From a virus, in IMG/VR virus record IMGVR_UViG_3300046535_000869, positions 38,083 through 102,082 of that record: DNA of 64,000 nt; one strand, given 5' to 3'. Position 1 is the stretch's first letter. Each line of letters starts with the position of its first letter. Of the stretch, positions 27,105-38,704 are shown in pieces. A program made the position numbers and the translations under genes. The notes under the pieces were generated by a model. That model made no database searches. It was not told the DNA's origin and worked only from the letters and a program-made list of their open reading frames with translations.

Positions 27105-27766
27105 AGCCCCGGCTGAATCTCTTGGCGGCTGATGCCGGACATCAGCGCGTCCATGTTCTCGCGGTAGCTCTTGGTCTCGGCGTCCAGCTCGTCGAGGACG
27201 CGCTCGTCGGCGTACTTGATGAACTGCTCGCCGCTGTGATCCCAGACAACCCAACAGCAGCACATCGAATCCGTGGCCCAGTCGCCGGTCGTCGGCGAGC
27301 GCTGGAACGCGAAGCGCTGGAGCCAGAGGATGCCGTTCGGCGGACGGTTCGATAGCCACGTCCGGCGGACGCCGGTCTTGAGGACTTCGTGAATGCTCGC
27401 CCGGAGCAGCATCGCGACGCCGACGCGCGAGATCTCCAGCATGTTCTCGATGATGTCGACGGCTGGCTCGAACGGCGGGTTGCTCACCGACCAGTCGACC
27501 GAGCCGAGTGTTGACTGGTTCAGTAGTGGCTTCGCTGCATCGAAGTTGTAGTCGGCCGTCCAGCGCGGGTCGAGGTCGTTCGTGACCCACGTCCGGCCAG
27601 ACGGCGAGCCGATAGACCAGTGTGGCCCATCAGCCGCGCGAGGGATGGCCCCGCTCCCGACGCACGGCTCGAAGCACCGCCCGCGTATGTCGACGTTCCT
27701 GAACAGGAACCTGACGAAGGCGCTGGGCGTCTCGTAGAACTCGAACGGGTTCGCCTCGTGGCTCAT
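27098..27766 (-). CDS. DNA adenine methyltransferase
   Basis: FYETP, EPCVGSG, TNDLD, SNPPF. Confidence 0.85.
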   Translation of the reverse strand: MSHEANPFEFYETPSAFVRFLFRNVDIRGRCFEPCVGSGAIPRAADGPHWSIGSPSGRTWVTNDLDPRWTADYNFDAAKPLLNQSTLGSVDWSVSNPPFEPAVDIIENMLEISRVGVAMLLRASIHEVLKTGVRRTWLSNRPPNGILWLQRFAFQRSPTTGDWATDSMCCCWVVWDHSGEQFIKYADERVLDELDAETKSYRENMDALMSGISRQEIQPGLW

Positions 27767-29071
27767 GCGCGGGTCCATTCCTCGGCCAACCCGGCGAGAT
27801 GTTCGAAGCGCGCGTCCTGCTTCGCCAGCCGGTTCAGCGCCTCCTGATGGTCGGCTTGTAGGCGGGCGTTCTCCTGCTGGAGACGGGAGACGTCGGCCCA
27901 TAGGAAACAGATATTGCAGTCGCAAGGCTGCTGATGGTCTCCACCCGGAGGATCAAGCCGCATCTGCTGGAGTCGCACGTCTTTATCCATCATCTTCGTG
28001 GTCTCACGAACTTGATGGAGGCGTGTGTGGGTGTCGTCAGGGGCGACGGGCTTGGTCATGATCTGGTTCGCTTTCGCGCCATATCTTCAGCCGACGCAAG
28101 CTGCTTCTCATAGACCTCGATGATGCGTTCTCTGGCTGCAAGTTCATCGCGGAGACGGGAGACTTCGGCCTCGGCTTTGGTCAGTTCTCCACGCAGGTAG
28201 CGCACGGTTTCCGCATGGCTGTCTCGTTCCTCGCGGAGACGGGAGACGTCGGCCGTTTGCTGCGAATCATGTTCACAAATGGCATCCACAAGGTCAGCCA
28301 CGTTGTCAGGCGTGGTGCGCTGAAAGTGTAAGGCCCGCGTATGCTTCTCCAGCCGGTCAATTACGTCAGCAACCACGGCTTCAGACAAGCGTGTGGGGGT
28401 GTCGTCAGGGGCGACGGGCTCAGTCATGAAATCCTCTCTCGGATGGCTCTGGCAACATCCTTAGCGAAGTTCAACCCATCTGCACAGTTCGGACACCATT
28501 GACTAAATTGCTTCTGGTCGTCCCTATGGTGCGTCTTGTGCTCCTTGTCCCCGTAGTCCTCGCACCACCTGTAAGCCAACCCTCGGAGCAGTTCCCTCAT
28601 ACAGTCCTGCGGCGGGGTGTCGTCAGGGGCGATGGGCTTGGCCGCGCCCGCACGAATCTCATCAAGCGGCCGGATGCGTCCCGCCTTCACATCATCAAGG
28701 GCGGTCACAAGTGCTTCCGCTTCTGCCTGATCGAACTGCGGCGGGGTGTCGTCAGGGGCGACGCAACTAGGGCTAGGCGCGTGTGGCAATCGACCGCCAC
28801 AACGACAAATAATGTCATCAGGGTCGGGGGTGTCGTCAGGGGCGACGGGCGGCTGACAGGTGCAGGGCCGTGTTCGATCAACGCTGATGGAATGTTCTCC
28901 CTCAACGAAGACATTGCAGCCTTCATAATGGCCGAAGGCTTCAAAGACACTCGCTGGCATCTTCGGCGCTTCGGCGTTTTCAGCATCGCACGCCGGACAG
29001 CCCCATGTCTGATACGGCTGGTCATGGTTATGTTGCGGCGGGGTGTCGTCAGGGGGGCGGGCGTCAGACAT
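27763..29071 (-). CDS. Three coupled mosaic ORFs (27763-28059, 28056-28427, 28424-29071) built from APDDTP-delimited modules
   Basis: Each begins MTxPVAPDDT or MSDARPPDDT; ATGA overlaps; lower-GC interiors. Confidence 0.7.
28031..29061. repeat. Six dispersed copies of ~20-bp repeat GTGTCGTCAGGGGCGACGGG
   Basis: Copies start at 28031, 28399, 28617, 28746, 28830 and 29043. Confidence 0.9.
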
Positions 29072-29226: not shown

Positions 29227-29625
29227 TTAGCCCTTCCCATGCTTCGCCTCCTCCTCCAGTGCTGCCCAGGTCTCGCTGTTTTCGCTGACCATCTGGTTAT
29301 AGAACGCCTGGACCTCTGGCTTCTCGAACTGGTCCGCGTACGCCTCGCGCACGCCGTCCGGGAGCAGGTCGCTGTCACCGCCGTCGGCCGCGTCGGCGAC
29401 GGCCAGGAAGATCTCGACCAGCGCGCGGACGACGACCGGCTTCAGCGGCTCGCCCATCTTCGGTTTGAACATCATGCCCTCATGCCATCATGCCGCGACG
29501 TACCACTTCCCCAGGTAGCGGAACAGGACGCCGGTCGTCTGCCCCGGAGGCAGCGCGACGAAGCGCTGGATGTCCTCGTGGAAGACGACCAGCAGCGACC
29601 CGTCCGGTTGTCGTTCGACGCCCAT
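29227..29625 (-). CDS. Two small hypothetical ORFs (29227-29475; 29488-29625)
   Basis: 29488-29625 (MGVERQPDGS...) starts at the array end, with GAGGAG upstream. Confidence 0.5.
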
Positions 29626-30752
29626 GCCTGCCACTCCTCGCCGGGCCGCGCCACGCCTGCCCATCCGAACCCAGACTTGCCTTGCCCCGCCTTGCCTGCC
29701 GGACACCGCCTCGCTCTTCCTGACCTCTCCCTGCCATGCCTGCCAGACCGGACGAAGCCGGGCCTAGCCTCACCACGCCTGCCGAGCCGCTCCGCGCGCC
29801 GCCTAGCCTTACCTGTCCAGGCCCTGCTTCGCCTGGCCTGCCGAACCGCGCCTAGCCCAGCGCAACCGGACCTCGCCTGGCCTGCCGCTCCGTTCTTAGC
29901 CCAGCCAAGCCAGGCCGGGTCCAGCCCAACCTCGCCTGCCGCTCCACGCCACGCGATGCCGAACCCGTCAGCGCCGCGCACCGCCACGCCTGCCGAACCG
30001 TGCCGAACCGTGCCGAACCGTGCCAGGCCCAGCCTCGCCTCGCCAGGCCCATCCTGCCGAGCCGAGCCATGCCATTCCCGGCCTCGCCTTTCCTTACCTG
30101 CCTCGCCGAACACCGACTCGCCCTGCCTGGCTTCGCCCTGCCATGCCTGCCGAACCAGACCCAGCCAGTCCTCGCCTTACCTAACCAAGCCTGCCAAGCC
30201 CGACCGCGCCATTCCCGGCCGCGCCAGGACACGCCTAGCCTGCCGAGCCGCGCGCAACCTTACCCCGCCTGTCGTTACCCAACCACTCCATACCTGGCCT
30301 GCCGAGCCTAACCTATCCACGCATGACCACGCCTTGCCCAGCATTACCGAGCCTGCCGCTCCGAACTAAACCCAGCCGCGCCCGGCCGCGCAGCGCCTAA
30401 CCAGTCCTGCCGAACCGCGCCAGACCTAGCCGACCTGACCTAGCCGAACCTGCCGAACCGCTCCATGCCCGTCCCGACTACGCCCCGCTGGGCCAGTCAT
30501 GACCACGCCTGCCGATCCGACCTCACCAGTCCAGGCCCGGCCGAGCCTCGCCCCGCCTGCCAGACCTCGCTGGACCTTGCCCTACCAGACGCCGCCTTGC
30601 CGCGCCTGCCGTTCCTTGCCTCTCCAAGCCCGAACACGCCAGACCAGGCCAGTCCTAGCCCTACCACGCCTGCCTCGCCGTGACCCGCCATGCACCGCTG
30701 TGCCACGCCTGCCGAACCAGGCCGCGCCAGTCCTAGCCCTGCCTTGCCTGCC
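29626..30752 (-). ncRNA. GGY-NN pentamer array (~23 units delimited by GGCA), putative guide-RNA precursor
   Basis: Minus strand reads GGCA GGC AA GGC AG GGC TA GGA CT GGC GC GGC CT GGT TC GGCA GGC GT... Delimiter spacings are almost all 5n+4 nt. No credible protein in any frame. Confidence 0.8.
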
Positions 30753-30757
30753 GAGAC

Positions 30758-31387
30758 TTAGACGCGCTCGAACCGGCCCCAGCCCAGCGCGCTCGACCGC
30801 TCCGGCCGTCCCTCGCAGATCCCGACGCCCCAACCCGCCTGGTCAATCAGCGCCAGAAGCTGGGCCTGGCTGATGAGCCGAGGGTTGAATTCGATGCGGA
30901 CCCTGAGCTGCCAGTGCGGGTAGATCGGCCGGTAGACGAGGCCGCGCGTGTTGATCCCGATGGTGACCGCGTCCTCCCGCATCGCGCCGATGGCTGGCCC
31001 GCCGTTCGGCGTCTCGATGGGAACATACGCCGCGCCAGGCGACGCCACGCTGTCGACGAAGATCGCCTGCCGGAGCGCAACCTTGGTCAGATCGTCGAAC
31101 GCCGTCGCCGCCGAGATGAGGGACTTCTTGAGCGCCGTGATCGGCGCGCACTCCCGGCCCTGCTCGTCGACGTACCGCGCCGCCAGGAACTCCGTCTCCG
31201 GCACGCGCTCCGCCTTCGCCTTCTTCGCCTTCTTCTGCTGCTTGTCCCGGATCTCCTGCTTGGCCTTCTCGGCGAACGCATGGATGACCAGAGGCGATCC
31301 GTTGCGCCCGCGCAGCGTGACCTCGATGCTCTGGATGCCGGTCGTTGCCGTGTTCTCGGTTGGTGCTGCCAGTACTGCCGTCGTCAT
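30758..31387 (-). CDS. Stand-alone Cas7/RAMP-superfamily-like protein
   Basis: IEVTLRG..SPLVIH (beta1 + SPLhiG-like), APITALKKSLISAA (IPgsslKGalr-like), thumb-like REDAVTIG...YRP, C-terminal Gly-rich loop AGWGVGICEGRP....LGWGRF. Confidence 0.75.
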   Translation of the reverse strand: MTTAVLAAPTENTATTGIQSIEVTLRGRNGSPLVIHAFAEKAKQEIRDKQQKKAKKAKAERVPETEFLAARYVDEQGRECAPITALKKSLISAATAFDDLTKVALRQAIFVDSVASPGAAYVPIETPNGGPAIGAMREDAVTIGINTRGLVYRPIYPHWQLRVRIEFNPRLISQAQLLALIDQAGWGVGICEGRPERSSALGWGRFERV

Positions 31388-31408: not shown

Positions 31409-31963
31409 TTATTTGAGCTTCACGTTTCGGCCTTCGAGTTTGAGGCGGTCGGCCAGGGCCTGCTGGTCCGCCGCGTCGACGCAGGACACGGACAACCAGC
31501 ACGCGGTCGTCTCGCCCTTCGCGATCTTCTTGGTTTCCTTGATCTGCGCGCGCACCTGGTCGCGCGTGAGATGTTCCGCCTCGGCCTTGTCGAGCCAGGC
31601 GTCCTGCTGGTCCGGTTCCAGCGGCGCGACCTCCTGATGAATCGCGAACGGGAGCGACTCGCGCCGACGGCTCGGAGGAATCGCGCGCGCGACCCAGGCC
31701 AGGTTGTCCGCCGTCCCAGACTCGTAGTCGACCGCGTCGAGGAACTGGCTGTACGTCTCCGGGAAGGTGACCTCGCCGAACGCCAGCAGATCGCCGACCC
31801 AGAACGGACTCGCCCGGTGCGCGTGCTTGGCCCAGGCCAGCGTCTCGCCCCACTCCTCGACGGTCATGTCCTCGGTCGCGACGACACGGTTGCCCTCGAA
31901 CTCGAACTTCCCAATCGTGAACGGAGCGACCTCTAGGGCCTCAGCGACAGCTTCCATCGTCAT
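31409..31963 (-). CDS. LmbU-like DNA-binding protein
   Basis: FWVGDLLAFGE...Y...NLAWVARAIPPSRRRESLPFAIHQEVA...WLDKA. Confidence 0.7.
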   Translation of the reverse strand: MTMEAVAEALEVAPFTIGKFEFEGNRVVATEDMTVEEWGETLAWAKHAHRASPFWVGDLLAFGEVTFPETYSQFLDAVDYESGTADNLAWVARAIPPSRRRESLPFAIHQEVAPLEPDQQDAWLDKAEAEHLTRDQVRAQIKETKKIAKGETTACWLSVSCVDAADQQALADRLKLEGRNVKLK

Positions 31964-32418
31964 CTCCTAGCGCCGAACACTTCGCCCAGCACTTGAATCG
32001 CCCGGCCACTATATATCATATCAGTAGTGAAACGCAAGAGCCGATATCCAGCCAGCGTGAGCGCATTATACTTCTCGATGTCGTTCACGTACCCCTGCCC
32101 GAAGTTGTGCCGAGACTTCTGCCATGTCCCGCCCTCGACCTCGACGACCAGGCGACGGACAGCCCAGTAGAAGTCCACCTGCCACTTGCGCCCAGGAATC
32201 AGACGGACCTCGCGCTCTGGAGCCGGGATGCCATCCGAGTTGAGCTGGAGCAGGAGCGCCTCCTCGCCAGGACTCGGCGCGCGCTTCGCCTTGCGCCGCT
32301 CGACCGGCGTTTCCTCCGGCCAGTCGCGGACGACCTCGGCCCGCTTCAGATCGGCGCGCGGTTTCGGGAGCCGCCGCTTGAGTCGCATCACGTCGGCCTC
32401 GGTCCAGCGTTGCGTCAT
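31960..32418 (-). CDS. Vsr/DUF559-like PD-(D/E)XK endonuclease
   Basis: EREVRLIPGRKWQVDFYW...VVEVEGG...DIEKYNALTLAGYRLLRFT. Confidence 0.8.
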   Translation of the reverse strand: MTQRWTEADVMRLKRRLPKPRADLKRAEVVRDWPEETPVERRKAKRAPSPGEEALLLQLNSDGIPAPEREVRLIPGRKWQVDFYWAVRRLVVEVEGGTWQKSRHNFGQGYVNDIEKYNALTLAGYRLLRFTTDMIYSGRAIQVLGEVFGARR

Positions 32419-32605
32419 GCAGGACTCCACGTCGTCGAGCACCACGTACAGAAGAACTCGCCAGACGGTTTCGCGATGGCCCCGGTCTGTTGACAGCTCG
32501 GACATCTCGCCGACGTGAGGCGCGAGCGCTCGGCCTTGTCCTTCGGCAGCTTCATCATCGGCCGCGCGCCGGGCCGACGGAGGCCCAACTTCTCGTTGAT
32601 CTTGC

Positions 32606-32854
32606 TCATCGCCAGCCCGCGTCGTAGAGGTCAACCTGCATCTGGAGGTTCAACCAGAACTCCGGCGTCGTCTTCGTGTACTGCGCGAAGATGAGCGCCA
32701 CGCGCGTCGACACATTCCGCCGACCGTGGATGATGTCGCCGAGGTACGTCGCCGCGATGCCCATCTTCCGCGCGGCGTCCTGCTGGGTCTCGGATAGAAA
32801 CTGCTCAATGAAGACCTGACCGGGAGGCGTCGGCTCGCGCTGCTTCGGCGTCAT
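32606..32854 (-). CDS. HigA-family antitoxin / XRE HTH protein
   Basis: PTPPGQVFIEQFL...QQDAARKMG...IIHGRRNVS...TPEFWLNLQ..DL. Confidence 0.8.
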   Translation of the reverse strand: MTPKQREPTPPGQVFIEQFLSETQQDAARKMGIAATYLGDIIHGRRNVSTRVALIFAQYTKTTPEFWLNLQMQVDLYDAGWR

Positions 32855-37855: not shown

Positions 37856-38704
37856 TCATCGTCGTCGTCTCACGCCCGCGTGGACAGGCACAGCCCGCAC
37901 GCCAGGATAGGCTTTCTCGACTTGCTCCTTGAGCGCCGTGGCCTGCTTGTTGAGCTGAGGCCCCAGCGCGTCCATCAGAGGCTCGATGTCAAGATGGCAG
38001 CGCCCGGCGAGCCAGGCTTCCATCAGCAGCTTGAAGTCGAAGACCTCGGCGGACCAGGTCGTCCGCACGCTCGCGCCTGCTATCGGTGCGGGCCGACGCT
38101 CGATCTCCACAGGTGCGGCCTTAACCTGGACGGCCGCGACGGCCGCGCTCTCCTGGCGGAAGGCTTCCGCGAGCGCCGGGTTCGGCTCGGCCTCCGCGAT
38201 CCGCTCGTAGGTTGCCGCCTTCGCCGCCTGGGCCGCGCGTGCCGCCGCGTCAGCGGCCTCCTGGTCGCGTCGCTGCTTCTCCCTGGCCAGTCTGTCCTGC
38301 TCGACCTTGAACGCGCCCAGGCGTCGCGACAGGGCCTGCTTGACCGGCTCCAGCGGCTTGGCGACCTCGCCCTCCAGCGCCCGGACGGTGTTGACCAGGG
38401 TGTTCAGCGGCCCCTTGAACCTGGCGTAGTGCTCGACGATCTTGAGCTGAAGGTCTCCCAGTTCCTGGATGACCTCGAAGCCCCGCTTGTTCGCGTCCTC
38501 GTCGACGACCAGTAGCTCGGTCGCCGTCGCGATGAGGATCTCGTCGTCGATGGACAGCTCGAAGGCGTTCGCCTTGAGCGCCGCGACCAGGCCGTCGAGC
38601 GCCGCCTGGCTGGTCAGCTTGTTGTTGAGGATCGTCAGCGCGTCCGGGTCGCGCGCCACTTCGATGTCAGGTAATGCTCGGCCGTGGTCTTCCATCTTCG
38701 TCAT
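37856..38704 (-). CDS. Coiled-coil phage recombination-associated protein
   Basis: Helical and Ala/Glu-rich; adjacent to the exonuclease and annealing protein. Confidence 0.55.
   Translation of the reverse strand: MTKMEDHGRALPDIEVARDPDALTILNNKLTSQAALDGLVAALKANAFELSIDDEILIATATELLVVDEDANKRGFEVIQELGDLQLKIVEHYARFKGPLNTLVNTVRALEGEVAKPLEPVKQALSRRLGAFKVEQDRLAREKQRRDQEAADAAARAAQAAKAATYERIAEAEPNPALAEAFRQESAAVAAVQVKAAPVEIERRPAPIAGASVRTTWSAEVFDFKLLMEAWLAGRCHLDIEPLMDALGPQLNKQATALKEQVEKAYPGVRAVPVHAGVRRRR

Follow-up and report, generated by a model that had tools for sequence, protein, structure and literature searches.

A probable VIPR system with a staggered array of tail-less vrRNA units in a 102-kb uncultured soil phage

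Results

The vipr locus and its neighbours

The locus lies in an uncultured soil phage whose virus record (IMG/VR IMGVR_UViG_3300046535_000869) is complete at 102 kb. It was analysed in a window of 64,000 nt, corresponding to positions 38,083 to 102,082 of that record, and all positions given here are counted from the first base of this window. The features at its core are the following.

31409 to 31963, minus strand: upstream neighbour of 184 aa, LmbU-like, ending 21 nt short of vipr
30758 to 31387, minus strand: vipr, encoding a 209-aa Vipr-family RAMP (Cas7-like) protein
29626 to 30757, minus strand: vrRNA array of ~23 units, each consisting of GGCA and 7-12 GG(C/T/A)NN pentamers
29488 to 29625, minus strand: first ORF past the array, 45 aa, with its ATG at 29625, given as context only

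An AAGGAG sequence is found six bases 5' of the vipr ATG, and the gene ends in a TAA stop codon. The G-rich tract starts 5 nt beyond this stop on the same strand, just as an earlier note on this DNA, made from the sequence alone, had placed a non-coding tract there, and it can be read down to ~29626. The 45-aa ORF that follows also has a longer, 72-aa form with a GTG start, which overlaps the last array units. Further downstream, the region 27763-29071 (minus strand) encodes six copies of the peptide motif (V/I/P)APDDTP, two of them at the N-termini of consecutive small genes (MTEPVAPDDTP and MTKPVAPDDTH) and four within a 215-aa gene at 28424-29071. At the DNA level this corresponds to a motif of ~20 nt that recurs a short way downstream of the VIPR locus.

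On the other side of vipr, the product of 31409-31963 matches NCBIfam NF038070 (LmbU-family transcriptional regulators) with an E-value of 9.6e-27 and 94 bits, which is under the 125-bit cut-off of that model. In 31 related loci where vipr was matched, no LmbU-like homologue adjoins it, and the gene is thus no conserved partner. Further upstream, the region 31960-32854 (minus strand) encodes two more proteins: one of 224 aa that carries an endonuclease domain of the DUF559/Vsr-like type (phrog_503), and an 82-aa HigA-family antitoxin-like HTH protein, for which no HigB partner is evident nearby.

The Vipr protein is predicted to adopt a Cas7-type fold

When the 209-aa protein was compared to PDB sequences with phmmer, the sole match was entry 36pp, 'SUSP1 Vipr protein', at an E-value of 7e-4. 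A profile built from 68 diverse homologues matched the same entry at 9.6e-14, and hmmsearch run directly on agp039, the gene of SUSP1, gave a match at 1e-18. Furthermore, phrog_4652, which PHROGs annotates as being of unknown function, matches the protein with an E-value of 7e-21, while no match was obtained in Pfam, NCBIfam or PADLOC. The Vipr family is large: at 90% identity it counts 820 clusters, and at 50% identity 1,949 representatives.

The AlphaFold (AF2) model of the protein (pLDDT 93, pTM 0.85) predicts a Cas7/Csm3-type RAMP fold with a single RRM core, a thumb formed by a beta-hairpin at residues 135-156, and a C-terminal glycine-rich loop. Residues G185, G189 and G204 are invariant. 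With Foldseek, the model had 51 PDB matches below 1e-3, and every one of those listed is a CRISPR RAMP/Cas7-family entry, including Csm3, Cmr4, Cmr6, type VII Cas7 and Cas7-11. VIA-align placed the model on Csm3 with a Z-score of 11.6 and an rmsd of 3.4 Å over 152 aligned residues, its top 50 rows again being all of the CRISPR RAMP/Cas7 family. The earlier note's reading of this ORF as a RAMP/Cas7-type protein, which was based on sequence hallmarks, is thereby supported.

This Cas7-like fold would also suit a degraded or orphan piece of a type III or type IV CRISPR-Cas system. However, no Cas1, no Pfam RAMP-family match and no CRISPR-type repeat-spacer array was found in the complete genome, which agrees with the earlier statement that the window has neither a CRISPR repeat-spacer array nor a cas1/2/3/5/6/10 gene. 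Moreover, the adjoining tract has a period of 5 nt as opposed to the 6 nt of Class 1 systems, and the best sequence match of the protein is Vipr instead of any Cas protein. As far as sequence can show, such an origin is refuted, and we give it practically no weight.

According to the VIPR cryo-EM preprint, the residues of SUSP1 Vipr that contact GGY are H17, R138, D177, W178 and R179, of which W178 is the pi-stacking tryptophan in the published structure. Their equivalents by alignment are given below.

SUSP1 H17: H36 here, within the SPLVIH motif
SUSP1 R138: R153 here, invariant in the 68-sequence alignment
SUSP1 D177: E192 here, a conservative change
SUSP1 W178: G193 here, not conserved
SUSP1 R179: R194 here, conserved

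Counterparts are therefore present at four of the five contact positions, and the aromatic residues W186 and W203 are found near G193. These residues bear on the question whether a Vipr-family protein and its repeat RNA could act unlike those of SUSP1, either by binding or cleaving RNA as Csm3 does, or with the array serving as a continuous scaffold or decoy. The closest solved folds being those of the RNA-targeting Csm3 and Cmr4, together with the absence of a W178 equivalent, point in this direction, but H36, R153, E192 and R194, the counterparts of SUSP1 residues that contact G, have all been retained, which speaks against it.

A pentamer array punctuated by GGCA

The tract downstream of vipr measures 1.13 kb and consists for 48% of G. 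Its GG autocorrelation at lags 5, 10 and 15 amounts to 2.8, 2.5 and 2.3 times expectation, the lag-5 value being 0.99 +/- 0.11 in 200 shuffles, and no second GG-lag-5 tract is present in the window or in the remainder of the 102-kb genome. Within the 210 pentamers that were parsed, position 1 is a G in 87% and position 2 in 96%, while the third base is never G but C in 61%, T in 24% and A in 14%; 83% of the pentamers carry GG and 85% a pyrimidine at position 3. Positions 4 and 5, the NN, are near-uniform. Their composition is 51% GC, versus 65% for the phage genome. Of the three possible frames, the one that places them on codon positions 1-2 gives the best fit, but a uniform model does equally well.

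The hexamer GGCAGG occurs 28 times, and a dynamic-programming parse places ~23 of these as a 4-nt GGCA between pentamers, the first at 30752-30749 and the last at 29632-29629 (minus strand). Each inserted GGCA shifts the pentamer phase by one base. The earlier note had described the tract as fixed triplets alternating with variable dinucleotides, and while this pentamer periodicity stands, the tract is not one unbroken run, since GGCA shifts its phase some 23 times. The resulting units have lengths of 5n+4 (39, 44, 49, 54, 59 or 64 nt), with 7-12 pentamers each. Unlike the variable position 3 of ordinary pentamers, the C and A of the delimiter are invariant, and the base 5' of it is a pyrimidine in 86%. 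None of the units carries a 3' tail, GGCA alone separating one from the next, and no Rfam family, ribozymes included, was found in the array. Three units are referred to individually.

30358 to 30411, minus strand: unit 8, with 10 pentamers; NN = CT TA GC GC CG GC TG TT TC GC
30103 to 30151, minus strand: unit 13, its first seven NN identical to those of unit 21
29701 to 29744, minus strand: unit 21, guide duplicate of unit 13

Of the positions compared between units 13 and 21, 1 of 16 is changed in the NN and 6 of 24 in the scaffold letters, a suggestive contrast that falls short of significance (Fisher p = 0.21). Unit 8 contains a terminator-like hairpin at 30373-30388 (minus strand) followed by GGTTTAGTTC, which is probably a coincidence.

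Contigs from four soil or rhizosphere runs were found to hold the same phage in three cases and a variant in the fourth (X4). In this rhizosphere strain, the flanking gene is ~90% identical and the distal array units differ (29633-29879): 46 other letters stand in place of 104 nt, and another 54 nt are skipped, which would suggest that array units turn over from one strain to the next. The NN differences of X4 were not counted as evidence, as these are expected wherever non-homologous units align.

Linkage of gene and array among relatives

To place the array in context we compiled 32 related loci from IMG/VR and species genomes, with protein identities of 31-82%. A same-strand GG-lag-5 tract adjoins vipr in 27 of the 28 loci that have flank enough to judge, usually directly downstream of the gene and sometimes upstream, and the relatives with linked arrays span 34% to 70% GC. 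The check that the earlier note had called for, on whether homologues have adjacent tracts with a 5-nt period, is thus positive in nearly all judgeable cases. As a positive control, the tract detector also recovers both known SUSP1 vrRNA regions. Furthermore, the GGCA delimiter and the 5n+4 lengths are kept in 18 other arrays, which together hold 84 delimiters at spacings of mostly 39, 44, 49, 54, 59, 64 or 69 nt. Two cultured actinophages with distant vipr homologues, Mycobacterium phage Saal (gp51) and Gordonia phage ODay (gp19), show the same GGCA-delimited grammar next to the gene.

The guides themselves are not shared. Not one of 151 guides from 23 arrays is common to different phages, though the proteins are 67-86% identical, and near-identical pairs among these guides are only duplications within single arrays. 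In other arrays of the clade, entire units or pairs of units have recently been duplicated in tandem (L009:1422-1640 and L020:3781-3870), which suggests that arrays grow by duplication of units, followed by divergence of the NN.

Across the related loci of this clade, no protein gene is conserved beside vipr, the apparently 'conserved' ORFs being array artefacts. The clade is without a recognisable accessory (vap) gene, and the description of vipr as a 'solo' gene has held up. More distant Vipr clades do carry a conserved gene of 150-170 aa, phrog_15946, directly 3' of vipr, with the motif FEW(D/N)D...AA...QAR.LI (L025:4609-5115, L027, L029, L031 and L043:3570-4025, the latter being Mycobacterium phage Saal gp52). 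This is probably one of the vap families of the VIPR preprint, and it has no homologue in the 102-kb phage genome. According to that preprint, VIPR loci 'typically' have vap, which implies that the accessory gene is not obligatory.

With the array and its relatives in hand, we can consider whether the tract is in fact unrelated to vipr and represents a coding low-complexity region, a G-quadruplex former or DNA repeats to which a protein binds. Stops being rare in G-rich sequence, the array does contain several ORFs of 70-210 aa, and with a GG every 5 nt, quadruplexes of two tetrads are conceivable. On the other hand, no reading frame survives the one-base shifts in phase that recur every 39-64 nt, and the only ORFs that seem conserved across loci are the artefacts mentioned above. 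Moreover, the tie to vipr is always on the strand of the gene, and the protein is homologous to one that was solved in complex with such RNA. We therefore regard an unrelated tract as very unlikely.

Candidate targets of the guides

Under a rule in which one nucleotide is skipped after every two, the best own-genome match of all 23 guides is at the level of shuffled guides. Self-targets are likewise absent from published VIPR systems, according to the VIPR preprints. External targets were sought by exact-pattern scans, seven in IMG/VR and one in JGI metagenomes, the latter with the 20-base core of guide 30674. No exact IMG/VR match was found for guides 30674 (24 bases), 30513 (20), 30303 (20), 30151 (18) and 29994 (20). 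Guide 29940 (18 bases) has two independent groups of IMG/VR matches, which were put down to chance: the tenth NN is mismatched, and the group of seven contigs has its skipped base at the first position of the codon. The JGI scan returned one homologous pair, in which 1 of 4 flanking bases matched and stops are present in both wobble-aligned frames, and this candidate was rejected as well.

Unit 8 is the only scanned guide with a candidate external target. Six IMG/VR contigs, homologous to one another and from six metagenomes, match its pattern, CTnTAnGCnGCnCGnGCnTGnTTnTCnGC, at all informative bases (20/20). On the opposite strand the site codes for AEK(Q/H)ARAAYS, an Ala/Arg-rich stretch, and the skipped bases are all at third codon positions, which vary among the six contigs. 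The gene concerned encodes a coiled-coil protein of 293-312 aa and is located between a GroES-like gene and the gene for the major head protein, the usual position for a scaffolding protein, and we refer to it as scaffold-like. Its family is very abundant in phages unrelated to this one, with more than 1,500 clusters in genomes of ~58-62 kb, within which the exact motif marks one subclade, and no homologue is present in the 102-kb VIPR phage. In the head module of these phages, a GroES-like co-chaperonin (phrog_3188) directly precedes the scaffold-like gene.

L058:8608-9911 (G001) and L050:5074-6377: regions with the GroES-like co-chaperonin

How often such a match would arise by chance was estimated from 401 genomes of one phylum, in which a scan of unit 8 allowing up to 3 mismatches gave ~168 matches versus ~98 under a uniform expectation (~1.7x). 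A reversed-pattern control gave a similar number, as judged by hand from about the first 50 rows of the table (25 versus 21). It should be noted that three of these genomes (G160, G032 and G057) are unpublished, and only the background count rests on them. From this background, 0.1-0.2 chance exact matches are estimated for the unit 8 guide in IMG/VR, which makes the match suggestive instead of proven. Additionally, it is a single match with no other guide converging on the same phages: the other guides do not match 35 kb of the largest target contig. Likewise, none of 102 guides from other phages scored above the shuffled level against this phage or the candidate target family, and neither did the guides of this array against related vipr loci. 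As such, unit 8 and the scaffold-like head gene form a candidate guide-target pair that is suggestive only, and could be due to chance. Of the gapped-NN search that the earlier note had proposed, this 20/20 candidate is the yield, the remaining scanned guides giving nothing or chance matches.

Discussion

The locus described here is very probably a VIPR (Viral Interference Programmable Repeat) system, composed of vipr and a staggered array of ~23 tail-less vrRNA units, and constitutes a further example of the VIPR RNA-guided DNA-silencing systems, a kind first published in 2026. In these systems, protomers of Vipr hold GGY, the NN read a gapped target, and silencing is brought about by binding (bioRxiv 10.64898/2026.04.26.720920,.720927, 2026.10.15.759431). 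The earlier note had proposed a non-CRISPR RNA-guided system and likened it to phage 'VIPR'-type systems. Such systems are described in the three preprints of 2026, and the homology to SUSP1 Vipr, the Cas7-like fold and the linked arrays, in combination with the published behaviour of VIPR, support the proposal by analogy.

By homology with SUSP1, transcription would read through vipr into the array, and one Vipr protomer would coat each pentamer, with 7-12 protomers per filament. The first and second G of a pentamer would be held by the RRM sheet, the thumb and the G-loop, while the following protomer would take its third base. This would leave the NN exposed for pairing with double-stranded DNA, skipping every third target base and covering a footprint of 20-35 bp, by which transcription of the bound gene would be blocked, most likely in rival mobile elements. 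We infer that GGCA marks the end of one guide and the start of the next, and may be where the RNA is processed or where a filament stops.

Not every aspect of the locus speaks for such a SUSP1-like action. Besides the features of the protein discussed above, the array units have no tail and the locus has no vap. Furthermore, the VIPR preprint reports confirmation by sRNA-seq for ribozyme arrays and single-vrRNA systems, and none for staggered arrays. Conversely, units of 7-12 pentamers with a conserved delimiter resemble discrete guides, the NN are hypervariable between phages, and the one candidate target follows the DNA skip-one rule at wobble positions. All in all, we consider it unlikely that this Vipr and its repeat RNA act by RNA binding or cleavage, or as a scaffold or decoy, and prefer the reading of a programmable, DNA-silencing VIPR system.

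Building on that preferred reading, we tentatively propose that in this clade without vap or tails, GGCA is a self-sufficient punctuation by which many short guides are made from one transcript, and that the array constitutes a panel in which each guide is directed against a different rival, with unit 8 silencing a head gene of the ~58-kb phage family. As a whole, this combination is possible rather than probable. If true, GGCA-driven maturation would be a mode that has so far had no experimental demonstration for any VIPR.

The published picture of VIPR is unchanged by this locus. What it does provide is a clearly resolved case of the VIPR architecture that has been studied least, namely a staggered and tail-less array without an accessory gene. 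The explicit grammar, GGCA plus n pentamers with n = 7-12, is common to 19 arrays, some of which belong to cultured mycobacteriophages and Gordonia phages, and such cultured actinophages offer a bench route to how staggered arrays are cut into guides. In addition, the locus supplies one concrete and testable candidate guide-target pair.

How then does it compare to known systems? With Csm3 and Cmr4, the Cas7 backbones of Class 1 systems, the protein shares the RRM core, the thumb hairpin and the Gly-rich loop. Polymerisation along a guide RNA is a feature of Csm3 and Cmr4, and would be expected here by analogy. In contrast, Class 1 Cas7 keeps a 6-nt register, where that of the present array is 5 nt with non-contiguous guide bases, and it comes with repeat-spacer arrays, other cas genes and a Pfam RAMP match, none of which is found at this locus.

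The likeness to SUSP1, an Escherichia phage with a type II VIPR (PDB 36pp), is closer. Both systems have homologous proteins and GGY/NN RNA genes on the strand of the protein gene, and both are phage-borne, without cas genes and without self-targets. According to the VIPR preprints, type II vrRNAs have 9-16 repeats and a conserved 3' tail or pseudoknot. SUSP1 accordingly has four separate vrRNAs of ~100 nt, whereas the present array has ~23 abutting, tail-less units of 7-12 repeats, some of them counting no more than 7-8. SUSP1 moreover carries the accessory gene vap1, while this locus has no conserved accessory gene, and its W178 is replaced by a Gly in this Vipr. Lastly, the shared target element of SUSP1 is known to be a satellite, whereas here there is a single candidate pair without convergence.

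Mycobacterium phage Saal and Gordonia phage ODay, with proteins (gp51 and gp19) that are 31-35% identical to the present one, have GGCA-delimited arrays directly adjoining the gene. In Saal, however, the array lies upstream of the gene, which is followed by the phrog_15946 accessory gp52 ('FEWND') that the present phage lacks. The architecture that comes nearest is that of the staggered VIPR arrays, for which the legend of fig. S18 (bioRxiv 10.64898/2026.04.26.720920) describes vrRNAs from positions that overlap by 1 nt, the end of one being the start of the next. There as here, a Vipr-family gene adjoins an uninterrupted array of pentamers, with a shift of one base from each guide to the next. 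As compared by this figure legend, the one-base offset in the present phage takes the form of a GGCA 4-mer, giving the 5n+4 lengths, and the array fits the 'staggered' architecture of the preprint.
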